From: Eledone cirrhosa | Taxonomy: Eukaryota | Reading direction: 5' to 3' | Assembly (NCBI GenBank): GCA_964016885.1 | Contig: OZ024741.1 | Location: 303,738,001 to 303,802,000, forward strand | Length of the DNA stretch: 64,000 nucleotides | Part shown: positions 6,072 through 62,908 of the stretch, in pieces | Position numbering within the stretch: the first letter of the stretch is position 1 | Layout: each line of letters starts with the position of its first letter | Notes under the pieces: generated by a model | Told to the model about the DNA's origin: nothing | Databases searched by the model: none | Seen by the model: the letters and a program-made list of their open reading frames with translations, nothing else | Made by a program: the position numbers and the translations under genes

Positions 6072-6159
<88 letters not shown>

Positions 6160-6160
6160 T

Positions 6161-6365
6161 ATAGGAACGAGTAGGACCCCGACGGCTGAGCTCAAGCCGT
6201 TTCGACGGCTAATCTGGACTAAACTTAGTCCAGAATTACCCGTCGAAACGGCTTGAGCTCAGCCGTCGAGGTCCTACTCGTTCCTATTACCCACTCTACT
6301 ACCCTAAGTATTGAGTACTTTGGTGCGTTATGGTCCATCTGGTTCCTTACCACATTTCCTTCGTT
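6161..6365. mobile_element. ~205-bp fold-back element in (TA)n carrying two hammerhead 3' halves
   Basis: 6161-6287 is a near-perfect palindrome; each arm has GAAAC-GGCT-tgagctc-AGCC-GTC; a second copy lies at 41070-41263 in the opposite orientation. Confidence 0.75.
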
Positions 6366-7787: not shown

Positions 7788-7823
7788 TCTTCTGATGAAG
7801 GACTAGTGTCCGAAACGTAAAGA
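7788..7823 (+). ncRNA. Minimal type I hammerhead ribozyme motif
   Basis: TCTT-CTGATGA-a-GGAC-tagt-GTCC-GAAAC-GTA-AAGA; intact core, stem I TCTT/AAGA, palindromic ACGT stem III. Confidence 0.8.
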
Positions 7824-8822: not shown

Positions 8823-9379
8823 TTCTTCCTCTATATCTCTTTCTCACTTCCTCTTTCTCACTTTCTATCCTTCTCTAGAAGAAATCTGCTGTGTTCAGAA
8901 CTGGAGAGGAATGGGCTCCGCCAGGCTTAAAATGCCCAAGAAACGCTGTATGTCACTACAGCGCCACTACCACTCCACCAGGAGTTACGGGACTTTACCA
9001 TACCATACTATACTATTGTTACTGTTCTTGTAGTCTTTGTTACGAGCATTATTGTTTTTGCCTTTGTTATGGTTGACGCAGCATAACCGAAGGAATTCGC
9101 TTCGCAATCATTAGGTCCCGTGTTCGATCCCACTGTGTGGCATATAGATCTCTGGAACTAATTCTACCAAACTCGTCCTATGGACTTAGTGCTCTACTAC
9201 TACGGATATAACCCACCAGTGCTCTTCTATTACATATATATATATATATATATGAGAAAAACCACAAACCCTCCATCTTAATTCTACTTTTGAAAAGCAT
9301 AAGAACTGCGAAACCGGTAAAGGAACCAAATAAATATTCTTAAAAAGACTCCAATTGCATTTTCGATTTCATCTTTTTT

Positions 9380-23953: not shown

Positions 23954-24299
23954 GAGAAATACACATAAATATATATGTTCAAATTATAAGGGATATAAAC
24001 CCACCAGTGTGACGAACATATTAACTACGTATACTACAAAGTATGCAAACCGACCATGGTTGGTATGTGTGTGCTTTTTTATATATATTTGTAGGTATGC
24101 ATGTATATACATTCATCCGCGCATATACATATATGTGTGTGTTCGACGCTTGAAGCCAGAAAACTTTTCTTTCTTTGTACTCCAAATTTTAGTGTGTGTC
24201 TTTTTCACAAACCAGACCGCATTCTTCATGCAGAAACTGCATTCTTTTTACCTTCCCTTAGATCAGTTAGGTACTCAATCCTTGTGTTGACTTGACACC

Positions 24300-24560
24300 T
24301 GGTTTCTTTTTGACAGATTTTCCTCCATCTATTACGGTCAACAGCACATTCCTCAAATTCTGATGGTTGTATTCCAATATGCTTGATACTATTCTTCTAT
24401 CTAAGAAGAGGTTTTCCTATGTTTCGCACTCCCGCCTGAAGTTGTCCATAAGTGAGAATTCTCGTCAGTCTTTCATCAATCATCCTAGCACCATGGCCAG
24501 CATATTTTAATTATGACTTTATCAAGAAGGCCTCTGTACTTTGTATATCACAATTCTTCC
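24300..24560 (-). mobile_element. Decayed RTE-type LINE 3' fragment
   Basis: Minus-strand remnants LKYAGH and RNIGKP...W. Confidence 0.5.
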
Positions 24561-24581
24561 TCTATATCTTTTTCTCATTTC

Positions 24582-24638
<57 letters not shown>

Positions 24639-24646
24639 CTCTCTCT

Positions 24647-24736
<90 letters not shown>

Positions 24737-25016
24737 GCTCTCTCCGTCTGGAAGAAATCGACTGGGTTCAAACTTGTTGAAGAAAGGGCTCCACCCGGTT
24801 TAAAATACCCACGAAGCGCTGTATGTCTTCACGGTGCCACTACGACTCTACTACGAGTCACAGATCCATACTTACATACAAGATTTAATGAATATATATA
24901 GTTGCGCAAGCAATGACGAAATAACAGTATATATATTCCCCATAACCACCGTTGAGGTAGCTGGTGAAACAAACATTAGAATGAGACAATGAGACAGCCT
25001 TCTTCTCCTGCTCAAC

Positions 25017-28000
25017 TGTTGGTGTATCTAGTGGTTTCCTGGGTTGGTGTATCTAGTGGTTGCCTGGGTTGGTGTATCTAGTGGTTTCCTGGGTTGGTGT
25101 ATCTAGTGGTTGCCTGGGTTGGTGTATCTAGTAGTTGCCTGTGTTGGTATATCTAGTAGTTGCCTGTGTTGGTGTATCTAGTAGTTGCCTGTGTTGGTGT
25201 ATCTAGTGGTTTCCTGGGTTGGTGTATCTAGTGGTTTCCTGGGTTGGTGTATCTAGTGGTTGCCTGGGTTGGTGTATCTAGTAGTTGCCTGTGTTGGTGT
25301 ATCTAGTAGTTGCCTGTGTTGGTGTATCTAGTGGTTTCCTGGGTTGGTGTATCTAGTGGTTGCCTGGGTTGGTGTATCTAGTGGTTTCCTGGGTTGGTGT
25401 ATCTAGTGGTTGCCTGGGTTGGTGTATCTAGTGGTTGCCTGGGTTGGTGTATCTAGTAGTTGCCTGTGTTGGTGTATCTAGTGGTTGCCTGGGTTGGTGT
25501 ATCTAGTGGTTGCTGTGTTGGTGTATCTAGTGGTTGCCTGGGTTGGTGTATCTAGTAGTTGCCTGGGTTGATGTGACTAGTGGTTTCCTGGGTTGGTGTA
25601 TCTAGTGGTTGCCTGGGTTGGTGTATCTAGTAGTTGCCTGTGTTGGTGTATCTAGTGGTTGCCTGGGTTGGTGTATCTAGTGGTTGCTGTGTTGGTGTAT
25701 CTAGTGGTTGCCTGGGTTGGTGTATCTAGTAGTTGCCTGTGTTGGTGTATCTAGTGGTTGCCTGTGTTGGTGTATCTAGTGGTTGCCTGTGTTGGTGTAT
25801 CTAGTGGTTTCCTCGGTTGATGTGATTAGTGGTTGCCTGGGTTGATGTATCTAGTGGTTGCCTGGGTCGGTGTATCTATTGGTTGCCTGGGTTGATGTGA
25901 CTAGGGTTGCCTGTGTTGGTGTATCTAGTGGTTGCCTGTGTTGGTGTATCTAGTGGTTGCCTGCGTTGTTGTATCTAGTAGTTGCCTGTGTTGGTGTATC
26001 TAGTGGTTGCTTGGGTTGATGTGACTAATGGTTGCCTGTCTTGGTTTATCTAGTGGTTGCCTGTATTGGTGTATCTAGTGGTTGCCCGGGTTCATGTCAC
26101 TAGTGGTTGCCTGTGTTTGTGTATCTAGTGGTTGCCTGGGTTGGTGTATCTAGTGGTTGCCTGTGTTGGTGTATCTAGTGGTTGCCTGTGTTGGTGTGAC
26201 TAGTGGTTGCCTGTGTTGGTGTATCGAGTAGTTGCCTGTGTTGGTGTATCTAGTGGTTGCCTGTGTTGGTGTATCTAGTGGTTGCCTGGGTTGGTGTATC
26301 TAGTAGTTGCCTGTGTTGGTGTATCTAGTGGTTGCCTGTGTTGGTGTATCTAGTGGTTTCCTCGGTTGATGTGACTAGTGGTTGCCTGGGTTGATGTGAC
26401 TAGTGGTTGCCTGGGTTGGTGTATCTAGTGGTTGCCTCTGTTGGTGTATCTAGTGGTTGCCTGTGTTGGTGTATCTAGTGATTGCCTGTGTTGGTTTATC
26501 TAGTGGTTGCCTGGGTTGATGTGACTAGTGGTCGCCTGGGTTGATGATCTAGTGGTTGCCTGTGTTGGTTTATCTAGTGGTTACCTGGGTTGATGTGACT
26601 AGTGGTTGCCTGTGTTTGTGTATCTAGTGGTTGCCTGGGTTGGTGTATCTAGTGGTTGCCTGTGTTGGTGTATCTAGTGGTTGCCTGTGTTGGTGTGACT
26701 AGTGGTTGCCTGGGTTGGTGTATCTAGTGGTTACCTGGGTTGGTGTATCTAGTGGTTGCCTGTGTTGGTGTGACTAGTGGTTGCCTGTGTTGGTGTGACT
26801 AGTGGTTGCCTGGGTTGGTGTATCTAGTGGTTACCTGGGTTGGTGTATCTAGTGGTTGCCTGTGTTGGTGTGATTAGTGGTTGCCTGTGTTGGTGTATCT
26901 AGTAGTTGCCTGTGTTGGTGTATCTAGTGGTTGCCTGTGTTGCGGTATCTAGTGGTTGCCTGGGTTGGTGTATCTAGTAGTTGCCTGTGTTGGTGTATCT
27001 AGTGGTTGCCTGTGTTGGTGTATCTAGTGGTTTCCTCGGTTGATGTGACTAGTGGTTGCCTGGGTTGATGTGACTAGTGGTTGCCTGGGTTGGTGTATCT
27101 AGTGGTTGCCTCTGTTGGTGTATCTAGTGGTTGCCTGTGTTGGTTTATCTAGTGGTTGCCTGGGTTGGTGTATCCACTGGTTGCCTGTGTTGGTGTATCT
27201 AGTGGTTGCCTGTGTTGGTGTATCTAGTATTTGCCTGTGTTGGTGTATCTAGTGGTTGCCTGTGTTGGTGTATCTAGTGATTGCCTGTGTTGGTTTATCT
27301 AGTGGTTGCCTGTGTTGGTGTATCTAGTGGTTGCCTGTGTTGTTGTGACTAGTGGTCGCCTGGGTTGATGATCTAGTGGTTGCCTGTGTTGGTTTATCTA
27401 GTGGTTACCTGGGTTGATGTGACTAGTGGTTGCCTGGGTTGATGCATCTAGTGGTTGCCTGTGTTGGTGTATCTAGTGGTTGCCTGTGTTGGTGTATCTA
27501 GTGGTTGCTTGGGTTGATGTGACTAATGGTTGGCTGTGTTGGTGTATCTAGTGGTTGCCTGTGTTGGTGTATCTAGTGGTTGCCTGGGTTCATGTGACTA
27601 GTGTTTGCCTGTGTTTGTGTATCTAGTGGTTGCCTGGGTTAGTGTATCTAGTGGTTGCCTGTGTTGGTGTATCTAGTGGTTGCCTGGGTTGGTGTATCTA
27701 GTAGTTGCCTGTGTTGGTGTATCTAGTGGTTGCCTGTGTTGGTGTATCTAGTGGTTGCCTGTGTTGGTGTATCTAATGATTGCCTGTGTTGGTTTATCTA
27801 GTGGTTGCCTGTGTTGGTGTATCTAGTGATTGCCTGTGTTGGTTTATCTAGTGGTTGCCTGTGTTGGTGTATCTAGTGGTTGCCTGTGTTGGTGTATCTA
27901 GTGGTTTCCTCGGTTGATGTGACTAGTGGTTGCCTGGGTTGATGTGACTAGTGGTTGCCTGGGTTGGTGTATCTAGTGGTTGCCTCTGTTGGTGTATCTA

Positions 28001-31000
28001 GTGGTTGCCTGTGTTGGTGTATCTAGTGATTGCCTGTGTTGGTTTATCTAGTGGTTGCCTGGGTTGATGTGACTAGTGGTCGCCTGGGTTGATGATCTAG
28101 TGGTTGCCTGTGTTGGTTTATCTAGTGGTTACCTGGGTTGATGTGACTAGTGGTTGCCTGTGTTTGTGTATCTAGTGGTTGCCTGGGTTGGTGTATCTAG
28201 TGGTTGCCTGTGTTGGTGTATCTAGTGGTTGCCTGTGTTGGTGTGACTAGTGGTTGCCTGGGTTGGTGTATCTAGTGGTTACCTGGGTTGGTGTATCTAG
28301 TGGTTGCCTGTGTTGGTGTGACTAGTGGTTGCCTGTGTTGGTGTGACTAGTGGTTGCCTGGGTTGGTGTATCTAGTGGTTACCTGGGTTGGTGTATCTAG
28401 TGGTTGCCTGTGTTGGTGTGATTAGTGGTTGCCTGTGTTGGTGTATCTAGTAGTTGCCTGTGTTGGTGTATCTAGTGGTTGCCTGTGTTGCGGTATCTAG
28501 TGGTTGCCTGGGTTGGTGTATCTAGTAGTTGCCTGTGTTGGTGTATCTAGTGGTTGCCTGTGTTGGTGTATCTAGTGGTTTCCTCGGTTGATGTGACTAG
28601 TGGTTGCCTGGGTTGATGTGACTAGTGGTTGCCTGGGTTGGTGTATCTAGTGGTTGCCTCTGTTGGTGTATCTAGTGGTTGCCTGTGTTGGTTTATCTAG
28701 TGGTTGCCTGGGTTGGTGTATCCACTGGTTGCCTGTGTTGGTGTATCTAGTGGTTGCCTGTGTTGGTGTATCTAGTATTTGCCTGTGTTGGTGTATCTAG
28801 TGGTTGCCTGTGTTGGTGTATCTAGTGATTGCCTGTGTTGGTTTATCTAGTGGTTGCCTGTGTTGGTGTATCTAGTGGTTGCCTGTGTTGTTGTGACTAG
28901 TGGTCGCCTGGGTTGATGATCTAGTGGTTGCCTGTGTTGGTTTATCTAGTGGTTACCTGGGTTGATGTGACTAGTGGTTGCCTGGGTTGATGCATCTAGT
29001 GGTTGCCTGTGTTGGTGTATCTAGTGGTTGCCTGTGTTGGTGTATCTAGTGGTTGCTTGGGTTGATGTGACTAATGGTTGGCTGTGTTGGTGTATCTAGT
29101 GGTTGCCTGTGCTGGTGTATCTAGTGGTTGCCTGGGTTCATGTGACTAGTGTTTGCCTGTGTTTGTGTATCTAGTGGTTGCCTGGGTTAGTGTATCTAGT
29201 GGTTGCCTGTGTTGGTGTATCTAGTGGTTGCCTGGGTTGGTGTATCTAGTAGTTGCCTGTGTTGGTGTATCTAGTGGTTGCCTGTGTTGGTGTATCTAGT
29301 GGTTGCCTGTGTTGGTGTATCTAATGATTGCCTGTGTTGGTTTATCTAGTGGTTGCCTGTGTTGGTGTATCTAGTGATTGCCTGTGTTGGTTTATCTAGT
29401 GGTTGCCTGTGTTGGTGTATCTAGTGGTTGCCTGTGTTGGTGTATCTAGTGGTTTCCTCGGTTGATGTGACTAGTGGTTGCCTGGGTTGATGTGACTAGT
29501 GGTTGCCTGGGTTGGTGTATCTAGTGGTTGCCTCTGTTGGTGTATCTAGTGGTTGCCTGTGTTGGTGTATCTAATGATTGCCTGTGTTGGTTTATCTAGT
29601 GGTTGCCTGTGTTGGTGTGACTAGTGGTTGCCTGGGTTGGTTTATCTAGTGGTTGCCTTTGTTGGTGTATCTAGTGGTTACCTGGGTTGATGTGACTAGT
29701 GGTTGCCTGGGTTGATGTATCTAGTGGTTGCCTGTGTTGGTGTATCTAGTGGTTGCCTGTGTTGGTGTATCTAGTGGTTGCTTGGGTTGATGTGACTAAT
29801 GGTTGCCTGTGTTGGTGTATCTAGTGGTTGCCTGTGTTGGTGTATCTAGTGGTTGCCTGGGTTCATGTGACTAGTGGTTGCCTGTGTTTGTGTATCTAGT
29901 GGTTGCCTGGGTTGGTGTATCTAGTGGTTGCCTGTGTTGGTGTATCTAGTGGTTGCCTGTGTTGGTGTGACTAGTGGTTGCCTGGGTTGGTGTATCTAGT
30001 GGTTACCTGGGTTGGTGTATCTAGTGGTTGCCTGTGTTGGTGTGACTAGTGGTTGCCTGTGTTGGTGTATCTAGCGATTGTTTGTGTTGGTTTATCTAGT
30101 GGTTGCGTGTGTTGGTGTATCTAGTGGTTGCCTGTGTTGTTGTGACTAGTGGTCGCCTGGGTTGATGATCTAGTGGTTGCCTGTGTTGGTTTATCTAGTG
30201 GTTACCTGGGTTGATGTGACTAGTGGTTGCCTGGGTTGATGTATCTAGTGGTTGCCTGTGTTGGTGTATCTAGTGCTTGCTTGGGTTGATGTGACTAATG
30301 GTTGCCTGTGTTGGTGTATCTAGTGGTTGCCTGTGTTTTGTGTATCTAGTGGTTGCCTGGGTTCATGTGACTAGTGGTTGCCTGTGTTTGTGCATCTAGT
30401 GGTTGCTTGGGTTGGTGTATCTAGTGGTTGCCTGTGTTGGTGTATCTAGTGGTTGCCTGTGTTGGTGTGACTAGTGGTTGCCTGGGTTGGTGTATCTAGT
30501 GGTTACCTGGGTTGGTGTATCTAGTGGTTGCCTGTGTTGGTGTGACTAGTGGTTGCCTGCGTTGGTGTATCTAGTGGTTGCCTGTGTTGGTGTATCTAGT
30601 GGTTATCTGGGTTGATGTGACTAGTGGTTGCCTGGGTTGATGTATCTAGTGGTTACCTGGGTTGGTGTGACTAGTGGTTGCCTGGGTTGGTGTATCTAGT
30701 TGTTGCATGTGTTGGTGTATCTAGTGGTTGCATGTGTTGGTGTATGTAGTGGTTGCCTGGGTTGGTGTATCTAGTGGTTGCCTGTGTTGGTGTATCTAGT
30801 GGTTGCCTGTGTTGATGTATCTAGTGGTTGCCTTTGTTGGTGTGACTAGTGGTTGCCTGGGTTGGTGTATCTAGTGGTTGCCTCTGTTGGTGTGACTAGT
30901 GGTTGCCTGGGTTCGTTTATCTAGTGGTTGCCTTTGTTGGTGTATCTAGTGGTTGCCTGGGTTGATGTGATTAGTGGTTGCCTGGGTTGATGTATCTAGT

Positions 31001-32035
31001 GGTTGCCTGGGTTGGTGTATCTAGTGGTTACCTGGGTTGGTGTATCTAGTGGTTGCCTGTGTTGGTGTGACTAGTGGTTGCCTGGGTTGGTTTATCTAGT
31101 GGTTGCCTGTATTGGTGTATCTAGTGGTTGCCTGGGTTGGTGTATCTAGTGGTTGCCTGTGTTGGTTTATCTAGTGGTTGCCTGGGTTGGTGTATCTAGT
31201 GGTTGCCTGTGTTGGTGTAGCTAATGGTTGCTTGTGTTGGTGTATCTAGTGGTTGCCTGTGTTGGTTTATCTAGTGGTTGCCTGGGTTGGTGTATCTAAT
31301 GGTTGCCTGTGTTGATGTGACTAGTGGTTGTCTGTCTTGGTGTATCTAGTGGTTTCCCGGGTTGATGTGATTAGTGGTTGCCTGGGTTGGTGTGACTAGT
31401 GGTTGCCTGTGTTGGTGTATCTAGTGGTGGCCTATGTTGGTGTCTCTAGTGGTTGCCTGTGTTGATGTATCTAGTGGTTGCCTGGGTTTATGTGACTAGT
31501 GGTTGCCTGTGTTGGTGTATTTATAGTGGTTTGCCTGTGTGGGTGTATCTAGTGGTTGCCTTGGTTGGTGTATCTAGTGGTTGCCTGTGTTGGTGTGACT
31601 AGTGGTTGCCTGTGTTGATGTGACTAGTGGTTGCCTGGGTTGATGTGACTAGTGGTTGCCTGGGTTGGTGTATCTAGTGGTTGCCTGGGTTGGTGTATCT
31701 AATGGTTGCCTGGGTTGGTGTATCTAATGGTTGCCTGTGTTGGTGTATCTAGTGGTTGCCTGTGTTGGTGTATCTAGTGGTTGCCTGTGTTGGTGTATCT
31801 AGTGGTTGCCTGTGTTGATGTATCTAGTGGTTGCCTGTGTTGGTGTATCTCGTGGTTGCATGGGTTGGTGTATCTAGTAGTTGCCTGGGTTGATGTGACG
31901 AGTGTTTGCCTGGGTTGATGTGACTAGTGGTTACCTGGGTTGATGTGACTAGTGGTTACCTGAGTTGATGTATCTAGTGGTTGCATGTGTTGGTGTATCT
32001 AGTGGTTGCATGTGTTGGTGTATCTAGTGGTTGTC
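25017..32035. repeat. Satellite/minisatellite, 25-bp unit GGTGTATCTAGTGGTTGCCTG(T/G)GTT, about 280 copies
   Basis: Direct inspection; rare variants recur at 1548-bp spacing. Confidence 0.97.
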
Positions 32036-33525
32036 TATATTGAATCTAGTGGCAGTCTACGTTGATGGGTTTAGTGGTTGTCTATGTTGAGTCTAGTTGT
32101 GGCTTTCGTTGATGAGCCCAGTGGTGTTGTATATTGTGTCTAGTAGTGGTCTGTATTGAGGTTAGCGGTGGTCTGTTGAGGCTAGTGGTAGCGTTAGTTG
32201 ATGAGTCTATTAGTGGTTTATATTGAGTATAGTGGCGGTCTGTATTGAGTTTAGTGTTGGTCTATGTTGATTCTATTGCAGGTCTATATTGAGTTTAGTG
32301 TTGGTCTATGTTCTGTCTATTGCAGATCTATAGTGAGTTTAGTGGTGGTCTATGTTGAGTCTATTGCAGGTCTATATTGAGATTAGTGGTGGTCTATGTT
32401 GAGTCTATTGCTGGTCTATGTTGAGGCTAGTTTTGGTCTATGTTGAGTCTATTGCTGGTCTATGTTGAGTTCAGTGGTGGTCTATGTTGAGTCTATTGCT
32501 GGTCTATGTTGAGGCTAGTGGTGGTCCATGTTGAGTTTATTGCAGGTCTATATTGAGTTTAGTGGTAGTCTATGTTGAGTCTAGTGCTGGTCTATATTGA
32601 GTCCATTGCTGGTCTATGTTGAGTCTATTGCTGGTCTATATTGAGTTTAGTGGTGGTCTATGTTGAGTCTAGTGCTGGTCTATATTGAGTCTAGCGATGG
32701 TCTATGTTGAGTCTATCGCTGGTCTATATTGAGTTTAGTGGTGGTCTATGTTGAGTCTAGTGCTGGTCTATATTGAGTCTAGCGATGGTCTATGTTGAGT
32801 CTATTGCTGGTCTATATTGAGTTTAGTGGTGGTCTATGTTGAGTCTAGTGCTGGTCTATATTGAGTCCATTGCTGGTCTATGTTGAGTCTATTGCTGGTC
32901 TATATTGAGTTTAGTGGTGGTCTATGTTGAGTCTAGTGCTGGTCTATATTGAGTCTAGCGATGGTCTATGTTGAGTCTATTGCTGGTCTATATTGAGTTT
33001 AGTGGTGGTCTATGTTGAGTCTAGTGCTGGTCTATATTGAGTCTAGCGATGGTCTATGTTGAGTCTATTGCAGGTCTATATTGAGTTTAGTGGTGGTCTA
33101 TGTTGAGTCTATTGCTGGTCTATGTTGAGGCTAGTGGTGGTCTATGTTGAGTCTATTGCTGGTCTATGTTGAGTTCAGTGGTGGTCTATGTTGAGTCTAT
33201 TGCTGGTCTATGTTGAGGCTAGTGGTGGTCTATGTTGAGTCTAGTGCTGGTCTATATTGAGTTTAGTGGTGGTCTATGTTAAGTCGATTGCTGGTCTATA
33301 TTGAGTCTAGTGGTGGTCTATGTTGAGTCTATTGTTGGTCTATGTTGAGTCTATTGCTGGTCTATATCGAAGCTAGTGATGGTCTGTGCTGTGTCTAGTG
33401 ATGCTCTATGTTGAGTATAGTGGCGGTTTATATTGAGTCTAGTGATGGTCTATATTGAGTTTAGTGGTGGTCTATGTTGTATATAGTGGTGGGCTTGTTA
33501 ATGAGACTAATGCTGGTCTATATTG
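32036..33525. repeat. Satellite/minisatellite, 22-bp unit GGTCTAT(G/A)TTGAGT(C/T)TA(T/G)TG(C/G)T
   Basis: Direct inspection; contiguous with and alignable to the 25-mer. Confidence 0.95.
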
Positions 33526-38270: not shown

Positions 38271-38298
<28 letters not shown>

Positions 38299-38299
<1 letters not shown>

Positions 38300-38758
38300 C
38301 TTGGGGAGGGTCATATTGTTATAATAATATTGCCAGAATTAATAACAGAACACTCACTGTTTGGTTGGTTTTCGCTTCTGTATCTTTTATATCAGTTAAT
38401 TCATTCGGACCTCAATGTTTACCATTGACTGACCAACGGTAAAAAATACAGATATAATATAGATATAAACACATATACATAGTCGAACAAAGTTGTTTCG
38501 TTGCACATCTGCAACATCGTCAGTGGTGCTATTATGTTCCCCCTGTTGTATTGTATATCTACGCCATCATTATTTTATCTGTTTATTTATTTATTTATTT
38601 ATTTATTTTTGTCTTCTTCTCTACGCATGCGTTTGCGTGTGTGTATAGTATTTGGTGTGTGTTCGCGTTTGGGTGACTGTGTTTTGGTTATTGTATTCTA
38701 TCTTAGTTTACTAGTGTCTGCTTATATGTGTTTGTTGTTATTGTGTTTGTGTATATAT

Positions 38759-38801
<43 letters not shown>

Positions 38802-39693
38802 TATTTCTCTTAAGTCAGTATTGTTTGTTTGGGTGTTGTTATTCCATTCATTTTTTCTGTTTAGCTTTGGCCTTCTAAGTTCTGTTTCGCTTGCCTCTCT
38901 GATTTGCCTGTCTGCTGGGTCATTTCTATGTTTAGATATTATTTTAATTTCTATGTTGTCTATGTTACCGTCATGTTTTTGTCTGGCGTGTTCGTATAGT
39001 ACTGAACCATTTTTTCGTCCTTTTAGTTCCCCCTCAGTGTTGGTCTATCCTTTCACCTATTCTACGAGCTGTCTCGCCTATGTATGTTGTTGTCATGTTT
39101 CTGCAAGTACCCTCTGTACATCTTATGCTATAGACTACATTTCTAGTTTTACAGTTTATCTGGGTTTACTTTACATATGATACATTTCCTATTAGTACAG
39201 TGGGTTTTCTTAAAAGGGTATTTTTTGCTGATCAGGGATTTTATGGTAGTTCCTGGCTTTTCTACCACTTTAATATTTAAGTGGGTCTTTCTCGAGGCTT
39301 TTCTACACTGGTTAGCTAATTTCCCTCCAGGGGTAGCGTCCACTAACATGACACTCTGGTATCTCTGGTTGTCGTACCATGAGGTGGTTTTCCCTATCTT
39401 ATGTTTAGTCCTATCTAAGCTATTCCATGATTTGCTCCTGTATAATGGGCAAATTCCTTTCATGTCCAGTTCTATGAGGGTCTTATACTTCTCCGTGGCT
39501 CCTTTGTATACTCTGATTCTGTCTCTTTGGTTGTAGCCAGAGAACTGCATGCGGTTGATGAAGTGTTGGATGTCTCTTTCCATTTCAGTTGGATCGCACA
39601 TGCCGGACACGTTCTGCGATCAGAATATTAAACTTATAGAATATTAAGCACTACTGGACATTGCTGAGTTTTTGTGTATCAGGTATTTGGAGG
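38299..39693 (-). mobile_element. Penelope-like element, 5'-truncated, left arm of inverted pair
   Basis: FINRMQFSGY...PLYRSKSW...ATPGGKLA, frameshifted GIY-YIG, and a 3' region with a hammerhead motif. Confidence 0.85.
38479..38533 (-). ncRNA. Hammerhead ribozyme-like motif
   Basis: CTGACGA-t-GTTGCA-gatg-TGCAAC-GAAAC-aacttt-GTT; stem I imperfect. Confidence 0.6.
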
Positions 39694-40486
39694 CCAACAG
39701 AAATGGAAAGAGACATCCAACACTTCATCAACCGCATGCAGTTCTCTGGCTACAACCAGAGAGACAGAATAAGAGTATACGAAGGAGCCACGGAGAAGTA
39801 TAAGACCCTCATAGAACTGGACATGAAAGGAATTTTCCCATTATACAGGAGCAAATCATGGAATAGCTTAGATAGGACTAAACATAAGATAGGGAAAACC
39901 ACCTCATGGTACGACAACCAGAGATACCAGAGTGTCATGTTTATGGACACTAACACTGGAGGAAAATTAGCTAACCAGTGTAGAAAGGCCCCAAGAAAGA
40001 CCCACTTAAAGATTAAAGTGGTAGAAAAGCCAGGAACTACCATAAAATCCCTGATCAGCAAAACATACCCTTTTAAGAAAACCCACTGTACTAATACGAA
40101 ATGTATTTTATGTAAAGTAAACCAAGATAAACTGTAAAACTAGAAATGTAGTCTATAGCATAAAATGATGTACAGAGGGTACTTGCAGAAACATGACAAC
40201 AACATACATAGGCGAGACAGCTTGTAGAATAGGTGAAAGGATAGACCAACACTGAGGGGAACTAAAAGGACGAAAAAATGGTTCAGTACTATACGAACAC
40301 GCCAGACAACAACATGACGGTAACATAGACAACATAGAAATTAAAATAATATCTAAACATAGAAATGACCCAGCAGACAGGCAAATCAGAGAGTCAAGTG
40401 AAATAGAACTTAGAAGGCCAAAGCTAAACAGAAAAAATGAATGGAATAACAACACCCAAACAAACAATACTGACTTAAGAGAAATA

Positions 40487-40517
<31 letters not shown>

Positions 40518-40681
40518 ATATATACACAAGCTCAATAACAACAAACACATATAAGCAGACACTAGTAAACTAAGATAGAATACAATAACCAAAACACAGT
40601 CACCCAGACGCGAACACACACCAAATACTATACACACACGCAAACGCATGCGCAGAGAAGAAGACAAAAAAAAAAAAATAA

Positions 40682-40720
<39 letters not shown>

Positions 40721-41030
40721 ACAGATAAAATAAAGATGGCGTAGATATACAATACAACAGGAGGAACATAATAGCACCACTGACGATGTTGCAGATGTGC
40801 AACGAAAGAACTTTGTTCGACTATGTATATGTGTTTATATCTATATTATATCTGTATTTTTTACCGTTGGTCAGTCAATGGTAAACATTGAGGTCCGAAT
40901 GAATTAACTGATATAAAAGATACAGAAGCGAAAACCAACCGAACAGTGAGTGTTCTGTTATTAATTCTGGCAATATTATTATAACAATATTTGTTTCGAC
41001 ACACGATTTCATATCAAAAACGTCGCAAAG

Positions 41031-41034
<4 letters not shown>
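39694..41034 (+). mobile_element. Penelope-like element, right arm of inverted pair
   Basis: Reverse complement of 38313-39593 with scattered differences; ORF 39661-40137; YIGETA remnant near 40205. Confidence 0.85.
40771..40824 (+). ncRNA. Hammerhead ribozyme-like motif (mirror of 38479-38533)
   Basis: CTGACGA-t-GTTGCA-gatg-TGCAAC-GAAA; the stem III C is changed to G. Confidence 0.5.
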
Positions 41035-41069
<35 letters not shown>

Positions 41070-41071
<2 letters not shown>

Positions 41072-41259
41072 CGAAGGAAATGTGGTAAGGAACCAGGTGG
41101 ACCATAACGCACCAAAGTACTCAATACTTAGGGTAGTAGAGTGGGTAATAGGAACGAGGTAGACCCCGACGGCTGAGCTCAAGCCGTTTCGACGGCTAAT
41201 TCTAGTCCAGAATTAGCTGTCGAAACGGCTTGAGCTCAGTCGTCGGGGTCCTACTCGTT

Positions 41260-41263
<4 letters not shown>
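41070..41263. mobile_element. Second copy of ~200-bp fold-back element in (TA)n
   Basis: Reverse complement of 6161-6365 with the same ends and a shortened centre. Confidence 0.75.
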
Positions 41264-44987: not shown

Positions 44988-45044
<57 letters not shown>

Positions 45045-45256
45045 AAAATGAATAAATGTAAGAGTCGCAAGTCGTTAGAACAAAAGCTTAAATATTTGTT
45101 CTAACGGCTTGCGACTCCTACATTTATTCATTTTGATTATACCTGCTCTGCTTGAGCACTCCACTAAATATTAACTCCTCTATAATATTTGACACTGCTA
45201 ACCCAAGCATTGAACCCACCTCGCTTCGGCTATCGGCATTTAGTATACTGTATCAC

Positions 45257-47805: not shown

Positions 47806-47897
<92 letters not shown>

Positions 47898-47901
<4 letters not shown>

Positions 47902-48159
47902 GTAGAACACTGGAAGGTAATATCCGTAGTGGTAGAACACTCAGTCCATGGGACGAGTTAGGTAGAAGTGGTTACACAACAGTTAGTTCACCATACCAAG
48001 AACAATTGTTTCACCTTAGCGGATCCTCAGCTTGTAATCCGCTAAGGTGAAACAATTGTTCTTGGTATGGTGAACTAACTGTTGTGTAACCACTTCTACC
48101 TAACTCGTCCCATGGACTGAGTGCTCTACCACTACGGATATTACCTTCCAGTGTTCTAC

Positions 48160-48163
<4 letters not shown>
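47898..48163. mobile_element. 266-bp near-perfect palindromic element in (TA)n
   Basis: ~127-bp arms and a ~12-nt loop; each arm carries GAAAC-AATT-GTT; a diverged single tail lies at ~9155-9232. Confidence 0.8.
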
Positions 48164-48204
<41 letters not shown>

Positions 48205-49164
48205 TAAAGTGGTCCTTCATCAGTGATCTTCCAACCATCTTCAGTATTTCTTCGCTTTAAAGACCATATACCTCCGGTTGGTGCGAGCAACGACTAAAAA
48301 AAGTCGTTGGGATATGTAAATAAAGGGAACAGCGAGAGTGTAAACAAACAAAGATGGTGAAGCAACGAAAAGTGAGGAAGAGCGAGTCAAGTCCCAAAAT
48401 TTCCATGAATATAAGTTCGGTGAAATCGTGAACGAGAGGGAATAAAGACCATCAAACCTGGTTGAAATGTGAGCAAGGAAGGAATTTCGCACAGGTCTAA
48501 CGGAAGGAAGAAGGGGTCTAGTCTGTGAATTCGGTAAACATAAGTTCTGTGAAATCGTAGACGAGAGAGAGAAAAAATGCCGACCGGCCTGGCCAAGCGT
48601 GCGAAAGAAAAGAATTACGCACAGGTCAAACGGGAAGGAGGAGGAGGAGAGGTAGTAACAGATAGTGAGTGATTGAAGGTTGAGGAAGAGGCTAACAGAG
48701 AGAGTGACTGTTAGAGAGGGTAAAGATACAGAGAAAGATGAAGCAGTAAGAACGAAATAGACGGGTCACAGCGGGAGAAAAAATATGTGTAAATATGAGA
48801 ATAAACGTGCAGCACGTCTTCCTGACTTCCTAGCTACACTTGACTTCTATTTTTATTGTTCTAGTAATAGGTAGTAACTTAACCACTACTATGCTAATCG
48901 ATACATCAATCTCCATAGATCAATCGAAACGATCGTAACACAATGAACTAACCTGACTTATGTTTTTATTGTTCTATGCACAAACACATATATGTAAATG
49001 ACTCTGTAACCCGGACAGATTTTCTTCGAGGATACCGTAGGTGGTGATCATCTACCACAAAAACTACCGGTCACACTGCCGAATTTCGCTGCAACTATCT
49101 TTCCTAGGACACATTGAATTCTAACAACGTTATCAGCCCCACCTCAACCAGGTGGATTAGGATA

Positions 49165-58490: not shown

Positions 58491-58628
58491 TGTTTCTACT
58501 TTAGGCACAAGGCCAGCAATTACCCAGTGCATTACTGGTACTTTATTTTATCGACCCCGTAAGGATGAAAGGCAAAGTCAACCTCGGCGGGATTTGAACT
58601 CCGCCGAGGTTGACTTTGCCTTTCATCC
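58491..58628 (-). mobile_element. SINE with inverted 5' segment and 17-bp TSD
   Basis: TSD ctgtcttcagaaataat at 58474 and 58628; internal hairpin aggatgaaaggcaaagtcaacctcggcgg/ccgccgaggttgactttgcctttcatcct. Confidence 0.8.
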
Positions 58629-61600
58629 TGTCTTCAGAAATAATGATATTTGTTTATTGAAAAGAACCAACAAAGATTTAATATAATAGCTCTGTTTGGG
58701 AGCAGGTTTTGAATTGACCAATAGAAAAGTAGTAAGTGGTCAAGTTGATAGAATAGTAGTAGTAGAAATTTAATTTAGGGGTAGTGGAATTCAGACTTAA
58801 GTTTTGAATAGAAAGAATACTTTGAATGAAAAGATTACTTTGAGGATGAAAAGAGGTCAAACCGGTGAAAGGTACACGAAAATCTGATGTTATTAAAGAA
58901 TAATGCTAATGTTAAAATCGAAGGAGAATAAAATTTTAGGGTAAATGTGTTAGTGAGAAATACCAATCTTATTTAAAACACAAGGAATTTAGATCTATAA
59001 CAAGAAATTAAATTAATTTAATTGATAGGTATACTTATAGGGATAAATTTATATTAATTCATATAGATGTGATAAATAAGAGTTAGATGTTATTAAAGAA
59101 TGTTGTTAAAAACGAATGAAAAAATTTGTTGGGGATAAATGTATTAGTGAGAAATAACAAACTTATATAGACTACAAGGAATTTAGATTCATAACAGGAA
59201 ATTAAAATAGTTTATATGTATACTTATAGGTATTAATTTTAGGAAAAGAGAGCTCTAAAAGGGAAATAAAATTATGAAGTTCTCAGTAGTAAAATACTAA
59301 TTATATGTTAACTAAATTAAAAAAACTAATTATAATAATTTGTAAAATATAAGTGAAGGTGTATATTAATTAGGTTTATAATATTTGAAAGTTCTTCTAA
59401 TTCTATGATTGCACGATATAATTAATTCTTGTCGCTTATTTAATAGGATATCCTTAGATTTCATTATTTCAAAAAGTTCCTGGGAACATAATCTACACTC
59501 ATATATGTTATTTTGATAAGGGGTGGCCCTTTTGAGCACACTCCAGGTCAGGTTATAATCGATATTCTTTTTTCTATAATTATTAATTATTTCAACCAAG
59601 GATGTTGTATTAGCTAATGCAGCATTTTTAAAACTATGTTTGTGGGTATTAAATCTTACTTTAAATTGGTTAGAAGTAGCACCTATATATGAATAAGTTG
59701 AGTCCTTAGTGCTAATTTTACATTTATATACTATGTTATTAATAAGACAATTTCCTTTTAATGGGCAATTTCCTTTGTTTCTACAGTTACAACCATTCGT
59801 GAATAATATATCAGAGGAGTTAGTCAAATTTGGTGTGGAATTTACTCGACTTGTTATATGTGAAGGAGATGGTGGTTTGTTGCGGTTTATTTTAGTATTA
59901 TGGTTAGTTTGATGTGTTGGTGGTATATTCATGGTTTTTTTTACATTTATATGCATTGTAGGCACTTATATTCTGTTGTATATTTTTGGTAGTGGAGTAG
60001 GAAAATTTGACCGTTGATCTATTTAAAACTTGATGGTATTTATGGTTTGGCGGGAAGATTTTCTCTAGGATGGTAAAAATCTTTTAGGGATATTATCTTT
60101 AATTTGTAGATTAAATGGAGGATTATACCAAGTAACTCGTCTATTACGGTTTCGATGTTGTTTTTTATATTTATACGATGTATCAGGATGTTTACTAAGA
60201 GAGTTAGTGTTAGTGAATTTATTATATATAGGTTTAGTTAGATTAACTGATTTAGGTGTTTTAGTCTGATTATTAGGAATTTTGTTAGTAATGTTATTAA
60301 CGTATATTGGAGTATTAGGATGAATGGTTTTTTGAAAGTTATTATATTTTATGTGAGAAGAGGTAGAGAAATTAAGTTTTAAGTTGGTATTTTGGGGTAT
60401 AGTGTGAGTGGAATTTAGGTGTGTGTTTTTCATTTGGTGTTTGTTGGTAATATTGGGTTGTATGTTTGAAGTATTATTGGTACAAGGTATATAAACTAAT
60501 TTGTTTTTGTGGCCGCTTCTAGCTAAAGCTTCGTTATAAAAGGTCGCATTTTTATCGAATACATCCTGGTTAGATGAAAGGTTAAAAATTCTGAGTGAGA
60601 TATTATATGCTAGGTTTTTAAGGATAGATCTAGGGTGATTGGATTGTGAGTGTATGTAATGTAAGTTTTGGTTAGGTTTATGGTAAGGTTGGTAGATACC
60701 CGTAGATAAGTCTAAAGTTAAATCAAGGAAATTAACTACTTTACTGGTGTTTTCAAATGTAATAATGAGACTATAATAGTCTTGGAGGAAAGTTCTAATA
60801 AGTTTTTTTATTTTTTTCAATTTCTGATAGGATAAGGTTAGTGGAAAGAAGAAGACAGTCGTCACGATATAAACCCTCTTTAAGGTGGGGAAAAGAAGCA
60901 TTTATTTTAAATAGAAGAAATAGGCCCACCAGATCGGTAATTTGGGCAGAATCACTAGAGCCCATAGCAATGTCGAATAGATTACTATATGTATTTCTGG
61001 TCCAGTATTCCTTCTGAAATTCCAGTAGTGTTTGTCTAGCGTGCGTGATAATATTAATGTCATCCATAGTTAAGTTTGATCTATTTTTGGTAAATATCAA
61101 GGCTTTGTTCAGGAGTATAGGTGATATAGAAGGATAATAAGCAGCTATATCGAATTGTAGAAATGAAGCAGATGATTTATTTCTAATATTGGTAAACCAG
61201 TTAATTACCTGGGATGTGTTTTCCCAGAGTGCAACTCTAATCCTTCTATAAGACTTATATGCCCTTCCAAATCTGACATTGGCATCATTAGTAAAAAGAT
61301 TTTAGACAGAGTCATTCCACATTTAAGAAAACATGTTAATTTACCACTCTGGGAAAACAACATCTCCATTTAATCTAGAAATTAAAGATAATAGCCCTAA
61401 AAAATGTTTAACTGTCCTAGAAAAAAAACCATGAATATACCACCAACACATCAAACTAACCATAATACTAAAATAAACCGCAACAAACCACCATCTCCTT
61501 CACATATAACAAGTCGAGTAAATTCCACACCAAATTTGACTAATTCCCTTGATATATTATTCACGAATGGTTGTAACTGTAGAAACAATGGAAATTGCCC

Positions 61601-62732
61601 ATTAAAAGGAAATTGTCTTATTAATAACATAGTATATAAATGTAAAATTAGCACTAAGGACTCAACTTATTCATATATAGTTGCTACTTCTAACCAATTT
61701 AAAGTAAGATTTAATACCCACAAACATAGTTTTAAAAATGCTGCATTAGCTAATACAACATCCTTGGTTGAAATAATTAATAATTATAGAAAAAAGAATA
61801 TCGATTATAACCTGACCTGGAGTGTGCTCAAAAGGGCCACCCCTTATCAAAATAACATATATGAGTGTAGATTATGTTCCCAGGAACTTTTTGAAATAAT
61901 GAAATCTAAGGATATCCTATTAAATAAGCGACAAGAATTAATTATATCGTGCAATCATAGAATTAGAAGAACTTTCAAATATTATAAACTTAATTAATGT
62001 ACACCTTACACTTATATTTTACAAATTATTATAATTAGTCTTTTTTATTTAGTTAACATATAATTAGTATTTTACTACTGAGAACTTCATAATTTTATTT
62101 CCCTTTTGCAGCTCTCTTTTCCTAAAATTAGTACCTATAAGTATACATATAAACTATTTTAATTTCCTGTTATGAATCTAAATTCCTTGTAGTCTATATA
62201 AGTTTGTTATTTCTCACTAATACATTTATCCCCAACAAATTTTTTCATTCGTTTTTAACAACATTCTTTAATAACATCTAACTCTTATTTATCACATCTA
62301 TATGAATTAATATAAATTTATCCCTATAAGTATACCTATCAATTAAATTAATTTAATTTCTTGTTATAGATCTAAATTCCTTGTGTTTTAAATAAGATTG
62401 GTATTTCTCACTAACACATTTACCCTAAAATTTTATTCTCCTTCGATTTTAACATTAGCATTATTCTTTAATAACATCAAATTTTCGTGTACCTTTCACC
62501 GGTTTGACCTCTTTTCAACCCCAAGGTAATCTTTTCATTCAAAGTATTCTTTCTATTCAAAACTTAAGTCTGCATTCCTCTACCCCTAAATTAAATTTCT
62601 ATTACTACTATTCTATCAACTTGACCACTTACTACTTTTCTATTGGTCAATTCAAAACCTGTTCCCAGACAGAGCTATTATATTAAATCTTTGTTGATTT
62701 TTTTTCAATAAACAAATATCATCATTTCTGAA

Positions 62733-62908
62733 GGCAGTATCAGTAGAGGGTCGGACGCCATGCTTTCCAGCATAGTTACGTCCCTTTACGATCTGAGTTC
62801 AAATCCCGCCGAGGTTGACTTTGCCTTTCATCCTTACGGGGTCGATAAAATAAAGTACCAGTAATGCACTGGGTAATTGCTGGCCTTGTGCCTAAAGTAG
62901 AAACAATT
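62733..62908 (+). mobile_element. SINE inserted at the hammerhead core of the right arm
   Basis: Family consensus; atttctgaag duplicated on both sides. Confidence 0.8.

Follow-up and report, generated by a model that had tools for sequence, protein, structure and literature searches.

Why a near-perfect palindrome lies between two (TA)n tracts in the 3.0-Gb genome of Eledone cirrhosa, and what its centre marks, is the question raised by positions 47898-48163 of the window, the 64-kb stretch of DNA analysed here. The palindrome spans 266 bp and consists of two 127-bp arms (47898-48024 and 48037-48163) that enclose a 12-nt loop, CCTCAGCTTGTA. Two of the 127 pairs are mismatched (47901/48160 and 47937/48124), and the computed odds of 125 of 127 pairs matching by chance are about 1e-67. 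The flanking tracts measure 78 and 38 nt, and GAAAC-AATT-GTT stands next to the centre on both strands (48049, plus; 48012, minus). A sequence-only reading of this DNA had described these features correctly and had taken the central hairpin for stem II of a hammerhead ribozyme, the place of a recurrent snap-back. We find that two 5'-truncated ends of a Hydra-clade Penelope-like retroelement (PLE), set head to head in a TA repeat, make up the palindrome, and that its centre likely marks the capped RNA start of that element, not a fold-back in a ribozyme stem. The object in the window is itself an ordinary dead stub. Its parts are given below, in an element numbering whose 0 is the C of CTGAGGA (48030, minus strand).

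47821-47898, no strand: left (TA)n target tract, 78 nt, from the sequence.
48163-48200, no strand: right (TA)n target tract, 38 nt, from the sequence.
47899-48038, minus: arm 1, -8 to +131, with the entire hammerhead-like motif and the tail; it begins at the modal 5' end of the family.
48037-48162, plus: arm 2, +6 to +131, lacking the CTGAGG half of the core; its tail is present, which is rare in the family.
48037-48038, no strand: junction, with AT common to both arms (3 nt counting the extra G).
47899-47962, minus: 64-nt tail (+68 to +131), between the two fixed 3' ends of the family.
48103-48122, plus: bulged hairpin ACTC-GTCC/GGAC-T-GAGT (+72 to +91), a predicted fold that lies 5 nt past the short 3' end and is mirrored in arm 1.
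48031-48038, minus: 5' strand of stem I, from the sequence; the A at 48038 is -8.
48024-48030, minus: hammerhead core CTGAGGA (CUGANGA), within the palindrome loop.
48013-48023, minus: true stem II region, TCCGCTAAGGT, 2 bp (CC/GG) and no G10.1-C11.1 pair.
48001-48012, minus: GAAAC, the palindromic AATT loop III and GUU, with a putative cleavage site predicted between 48001 and 48000 (+29/+30).
9153-9225, plus: older, solitary piece of this family's tail, identical at 60 of 73 columns, with a TA tract close to its end.

The identity of the arms can be observed directly in sister copies, which continue beyond the palindrome centre into a retroelement. The longer natural copies encode a reverse transcriptase (RT) followed C-terminally by a GIY-YIG-type nuclease (VIY...YVG), as EN+ PLEs do, within a parent unit of about 2.5 kb that has one open reading frame (ORF) and occurs in partial tandems. 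The repeat of the arms also precedes the ORF start, a pseudo-LTR layout present in L203, L206-L208, L213-L215 and L219-L221, and an ATG lies at +288 in the five copies, of nine, in which the core was located. The Hydra clade is defined by a DKT motif, an RWK motif, a CxCx5C linker, CxxC and CxH motifs around E and N, a length below 3 kb and (TA)n targets (PMC8557442). The present copies show SDKT (L203, L083, L114, L116 and L198; SEKT in L122), the linker CSCRKPEAC and the series CGLCIDE...NE...CPH, and have a unit below 3 kb with TA flanks; at the RWK position, aligned by eye, eight of nine copies read RWR and one RWP. The N-terminus and the RT core also align by eye with Hydra-1_Obim from the supplement of PMC8557442, and it is by motifs and by-eye comparison with the supplement sequences that the clade was assigned. 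Pfam returned no family for any of three protein fragments. Atlas matches stood at 0.96-0.97, and PF01541 is carried by 19% of the members in one set of 5 of 30. Like the Hydra clade as PMC8557442 presents it, with Hydra-1_Obim as an example, the parent has a short unit, a single ORF, DKT, RW(R/K), the cysteine motifs, (TA)n targets and a hammerhead near the element end, but it differs in having RWR for RWK, a different hammerhead (2-bp stem II, GUU), a 64-nt tail and partial tandems. Judged by its sequence, the parent is best placed as a distinct family inside the Hydra clade.

The family is abundant, with 5,300 arms, 2,605 intact hammerhead cores and 217 short-loop palindromes genome-wide by exact pattern counts, and one arm used as query gave at least 52 matches at 94-100% identity among the best 40 of 2,221 candidates scored. 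Most sampled loci lie in the first part of contig C1 and were picked by exact-match patterns. Their 3' ends are observed at two fixed places, since 50 of the 90 arms recovered from the first 100 matches end near +131 (tailed), 39 near +67 (short) and one elsewhere. Head-to-head junctions numbered 109 in the fetched loci; both arms reach a 3' end in 82 of these, and 73 of the 82 pairs combine one tailed with one short arm. The remainder comprises four two-tailed pairs (the window copy, L171, L185 and the diverged, doubtful L028), two pairs that are short on both sides and three others. The same pairing rule is observed in the least biased set, 24 pairs from L136-L203 picked on a motif downstream of the ribozyme, of which 21 are one tailed and one short (p=1e-4 against independent ends). 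ACCAC stands just before both 3' ends, and loose ends also appear at 48098 and 48160 in the raw reads of two further samples (380 and 223 in X7, 347 and 304 in X8). The predicted fold of the tail hairpin has -8.4 kcal/mol, a value given without a shuffle control; at each of its positions, the commonest pair is present in 165-175 of 182 arms, and no second such hairpin appeared in +132 to +200 of four copies. The tail relative that the sequence-only reading had placed near 9155-9232 does exist, as a lone tail fragment at about 9153-9225 that aligns to element positions +54 to +127 (60 of 73 columns by alignment count). Within the TA tracts, target-site duplications are unreadable.

Paired arms have a shared source. 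They have 62 non-majority bases in common in 5,274 sites (0.0118 per site), against a mean of 0.0015 and a maximum of 0.0046 in 500 shuffles, and both arms of the window copy carry a minority variant at +32 that is present in 17 of 267 arms of the family. Pairs also resemble each other in length: both arms are long in 13 pairs (2.9 expected), and the arm starts lie within 4 nt of each other in 21 of 73 pairs (7.3 expected). The 5'-longer arm is the tailed one in 33 pairs and the short one in 22, with the starts within 3 nt in the other 18.

The 5' ends themselves are not scattered evenly. Of 67 arms at risk, 25 stop in -14 to 0, whereas the rate in the body is more than 10-fold lower, at about 0.1-0.2% per base. 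Among 30 sampled loci per position, true starts were found in 23 at -8 (409 matches; about 314 genome-wide), 14 at -14 (148 matches; about 69), 10 at +30 (202 matches; about 67) and 3 at +1 (281 matches; about 28); a looser start rule gave 24 of 30 at -8 and 7 of 30 at +1. In the window copy, -8 is preceded by an extra G (48039, minus strand, before the A at 48038) that the parent lacks. Such a G, absent from the parent, is observed before 14 of the 23 true starts at -8 and before 7 of 27 at three control positions (p=0.013), an excess that is weak when -8 is compared with -14 alone (14/23 versus 4/14, p=0.058). At loci not picked on that base, G precedes -8 in 8 of 11 against 28 of 100 (p=0.005), but in three of the 11, one of them the window copy, the G could have come from the partner arm. 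The raw share of G among pattern matches (46 of 100 at -8, 36 of 100 at +1) is uninformative because most +1 matches are substitutions, and hence only true starts were compared. The context of -8, TCCATT, fits BBCABW, which we take to be the initiator pattern, one of low information. The extra G is likely a copied RNA cap. At the analogous CATT position of a sibling family described below, the excess did not recur, with G in 8 of the first 100 matches; most of these CATT matches have A, from AATT joints, and the RNA of that family may start elsewhere.

How, then, could two arms from one source meet head to head? We consider it probable that a single capped element RNA had its front copied twice into DNA and that end-to-end joining of the two copies made the palindrome. 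The transcript would begin at -8 in the upstream repeat, and the enzyme, probably a dimer, would cut both strands of the (TA)n tract, each of which would prime one cDNA, the usual starting points being +67 and +131. A cDNA begun so near the front of the RNA would run off after 75-140 nt and copy the cap as C, and the two cDNA 3' ends would then be joined, with 0-4 bases in common or a few extra bases at the joint. In the window copy both cDNAs would have started from +131, with the joint at ATC/GAT, including the cap-derived base. The one-sided tails, the shared variants and the loop-less pairs together favour two cDNAs from one RNA. Loop-less pairs in which both arms start from -8 with one base between them (L255, L259, L279/L280 and L283) need two molecules, since self fold-back cannot make them. 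More tentatively, and with slightly less than even confidence, it is appealing to propose that the mini-palindromes at large are fossils of a dimeric enzyme that makes two copies of one capped RNA on both strands of a TA break, starting at two fixed internal sites, the G at -8 being the cap; the cap, the dimer and the order of events are what we infer from the ends and their pairing. If this is true, the first base of hammerhead stem I is where transcription starts, and a ribozyme active in cutting would strip the cap from its own mRNA.

It is also conceivable, if unlikely, that the window copy arose by self fold-back, a cDNA from +131 having run off at -8, gained a C, folded its ATC onto its own GAT, leaving the 12-nt loop, and been copied back to +131. 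Both arms of the window copy are tailed and share the minority variant at +32, the extra G sits on the arm that reaches farther 5', and self-priming has been proposed for Penelope palindromes (PMC3846280). As self fold-back predicts, the window copy is two-tailed, which holds for only 4 of the 82 pairs (one doubtful) and counts against two cDNAs. The exact junction of the window copy was found eight times: in the window with two tails, twice with the tail on the -8 arm, twice with the tail on the +6 arm, twice with the loop segment only on one side and once in a complex arrangement. Such reciprocal placement of the tail at one junction favours the joining of two cDNAs, and a short -8 arm with a tailed +6 arm (L338 and L340; also L060) cannot come from a short template without later trimming. 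Trimming after a fold-back could, however, also put the tail on either arm. The loop-only relatives speak for the fold-back (L335, L337 and L176), and L335 and L337, which keep only a 16-nt loop segment on one side, fit a nicked hairpin or a later deletion. Together with the two tails of the window copy, these two loci make fold-back a possible route for a minority of copies. The partner arm could moreover have supplied the G in a few cases, the window copy included, and the G excess is subject to the limits given above for -14 and for the sibling position tried. Against self fold-back stand the two-tailed L171, which has no loop and indicates that two tails need no fold-back, and the stem that would have been used, which would be just 3 bp, made with the extra G and outside stem II.

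A further, improbable scenario is that an ordinary pair of one tailed and one short arm, the norm of the family, had its short arm lengthened later by copying the other arm in hairpin-driven homogenisation. Near-perfect palindromes can homogenise their arms. However, the two arm differences both fall in the tail (+93 and +129) and none in the part that is older and shared, and each arm has a clean end at +131.

The remaining mechanistic possibility is the one that the sequence-only reading had favoured, a recurrent mechanism in which the cDNA snaps back within stem II of the hammerhead, and we regard it as very improbable. A hammerhead-like motif, a putative ribozyme by its sequence, is present, since the minus arm has both boxes (CUGANGA and GAAA), stems I and III and an NUH site. 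The core CTGAGGA, however, lies in the palindrome loop, and the true stem II is 2 bp long and inside each arm. The central hairpin is thus not stem II: its 12-bp stem is where the duplication begins, and only arm 1 has the part of the element that forms the loop. The position of the G10.1-C11.1 pair, called highly conserved in minimal hammerheads (PMC4209133), is T.T in 142 of 147 arms, followed by 2 bp. Like the minimal type I PLE hammerheads in that account, the motif has the core boxes, a small palindromic helix III and an extra base after A9, but its helix II is much shorter and the G10.1-C11.1 pair is absent. Common variants among the 147 arms fall at N7, in loop II and on or immediately upstream of the 5' strand of stem I, and spare the core positions, in a survey in which many loci had been picked on an exact core. 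The A-U pair at -3/+32 of the window copy occurs in 1 of 147 arms, each single change having also been seen alone 10 times; it looks like a compensatory change, but the pattern is consistent with independent CpG decay. Folding of the monomer motif was not better than that of shuffles (z=-0.08 and -0.68), and Rfam at gathering thresholds gave no match in the window. About 67 arms begin at the predicted cut (+30), against about 28 and 69 at the control positions +1 and -14, and these counts do not show an enrichment of 5' starts at the cut. As individual observations, both arms of L359/L360 (G000:C2:17171063-17171104) begin exactly at the predicted cut; L339 (G000:C8:44590007) has at least three tandem 41-nt repeats of -8 to +33, each with a hammerhead core, beside its junction; and in L048 and L054 the stem I complementarity (-10 to -1 with +30 to +39) serves as a 10-nt junction overlap.

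What did recur from that reading is the pattern. In the three small palindromes of two families in the window, both of Hydra type, the distance from the centre to GAAA is 15-20 nt, and the 217 short-loop palindromes could be counted in favour of a snap-back as well. Both arms begin in stem II, however, in just 2 of 82 pairs, and of the 24 least biased pairs 1 does so while 21 keep the full core in one arm; 50 listed loci among the 217 have varied joints, many at GGATCC. A class with its centre fixed in stem II and the 5' core lost from both arms is accordingly not what the junction census contains. GAAAC stands near the palindrome centres because the 5' ends cluster there; in four other palindromes of the window the first GAAA lies 41-380 nt away.

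The second of these families, the sibling, occupies 6075-6363 and 41050-41263 of the window (copies at 6224 and 41206). The two had been called unrelated, which holds at the DNA level, but the sibling too is the end of a Hydra-type element. It has 25,039 exact arms genome-wide, joins a Hydra-type nuclease end, with the nuclease about 1.2 kb upstream in some parents, and has its 3' ends at +42 and +116 from GAAAC. One tailed and one short arm were found in 17 of 17 rows, some of which are the same locus or a short overlap. CTGANGA was absent upstream in 10 of 10 parent copies checked, and so no stem II can be defined there, which also weighs against a snap-back in it; the joints are variable, mostly 11-27 nt before GAAAC. 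Some parents (L244) lie behind a different ORF end, and the end may have been captured or swapped.

Other repeats of the window were seen in passing. A 2.7-kb head-to-head Penelope-like pair (38298-41035) has a full hammerhead on both arms (38523, minus; 40780, plus), and its arms end differently. A 4-kb inverted Hydra-type pair at 58620-62735 (CNCRNKGNC, RT fragments) has another repeat on both sides, and no CTGANGA-GAAA motif was found at its right end, which was scanned. A small palindrome beside a TA tract (45044-45135) lacks GAAA in the vicinity of its centre. Other families contribute more hammerhead-like motifs, which at 7792 (plus), 47283, 63245 and 63519 (all minus), adjoin TA or CT tracts, and the region at about 24000-33000 (GC skew about +0.5, AT skew about -0.6) is probably a tandem repeat. 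Next to the palindrome itself, a CTGATGA box is cut off by the right TA tract (48201-48230, minus strand), and the right flank resembles the flank of locus L335. The palindrome may have been inserted into the end of another repeat. A transcript across it, if made, is predicted to form a 127-bp hairpin.

That the palindrome is an artefact of assembly or of fold-back reads is scarcely credible: no read or contig piece crosses the junction in four runs, in which the raw reads were reduced-representation and from other samples, but the arms differ at two sites, the flanks past the TA tracts are unlike each other, the same junction occurs at seven other loci and the palindromes of the family are asymmetric in a rule-like way.

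Among known systems, L1 twin priming uses two primers at one break and yields an inversion. Its two pieces cover different parts of the RNA, whereas both arms here cover the same part, which gives a palindrome. A head-to-head layout, a one-sided tail and the (TA)n bias are themselves already published. PLE insertions have an adjacent inverted 5'-truncated copy, a one-sided tail of 30-40 bp and a (TA)n bias, and the origin of their inverted repeats and one-sided tails is called an open question (PMC8557442). The present pairs resemble those published (PMC8557442; PMC3846280) in being head to head, with a variable junction and a one-sided tail as the family rule, but the tail here has 64 nt and is found on both arms of the window copy. 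The G added before -8 recalls L1 and SVA, where an extra 5' G has been read as a copied cap (PMC4859970). Neither a cap-derived G nor two-cDNA joining was found reported for Penelope-like elements in mainly non-subscription literature (with the supplement of PMC8557442), and a retrozyme preprint (10.64898/2026.07.22.740005), in the portion used here, has no bearing on inversions.

A close biochemical counterpart is the Poseidon PAc of Anolis, whose protein in vitro cuts and extends both strands, with two internal sites bounding the tail, is a predicted dimer and uses uncleaved RNA as the main template (Frangieh et al., 2024; PMC11167929). The likeness extends to the two internal start sites that bound the tail, an AC-rich context and an AT-rich target, and the two fixed 3' ends and one-sided tails of the present family fit this behaviour in vitro. 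PAc belongs to a different clade, and the account of it drawn on here does not deal with inverted pairs or 5' ends (PMC11167929). For Penelope palindromes, self-priming on an antisense template was proposed in 2013 (PMC3846280); the present census instead favours two cDNAs from sense RNA. The family bears on the origin of the inverted repeats and one-sided tails of Penelope-like elements. Its copies predict that the RNA begins at -8, that copying sets out from +67 and from +131, with one of these on each target strand, and that two cDNAs are joined, in place of self-priming.
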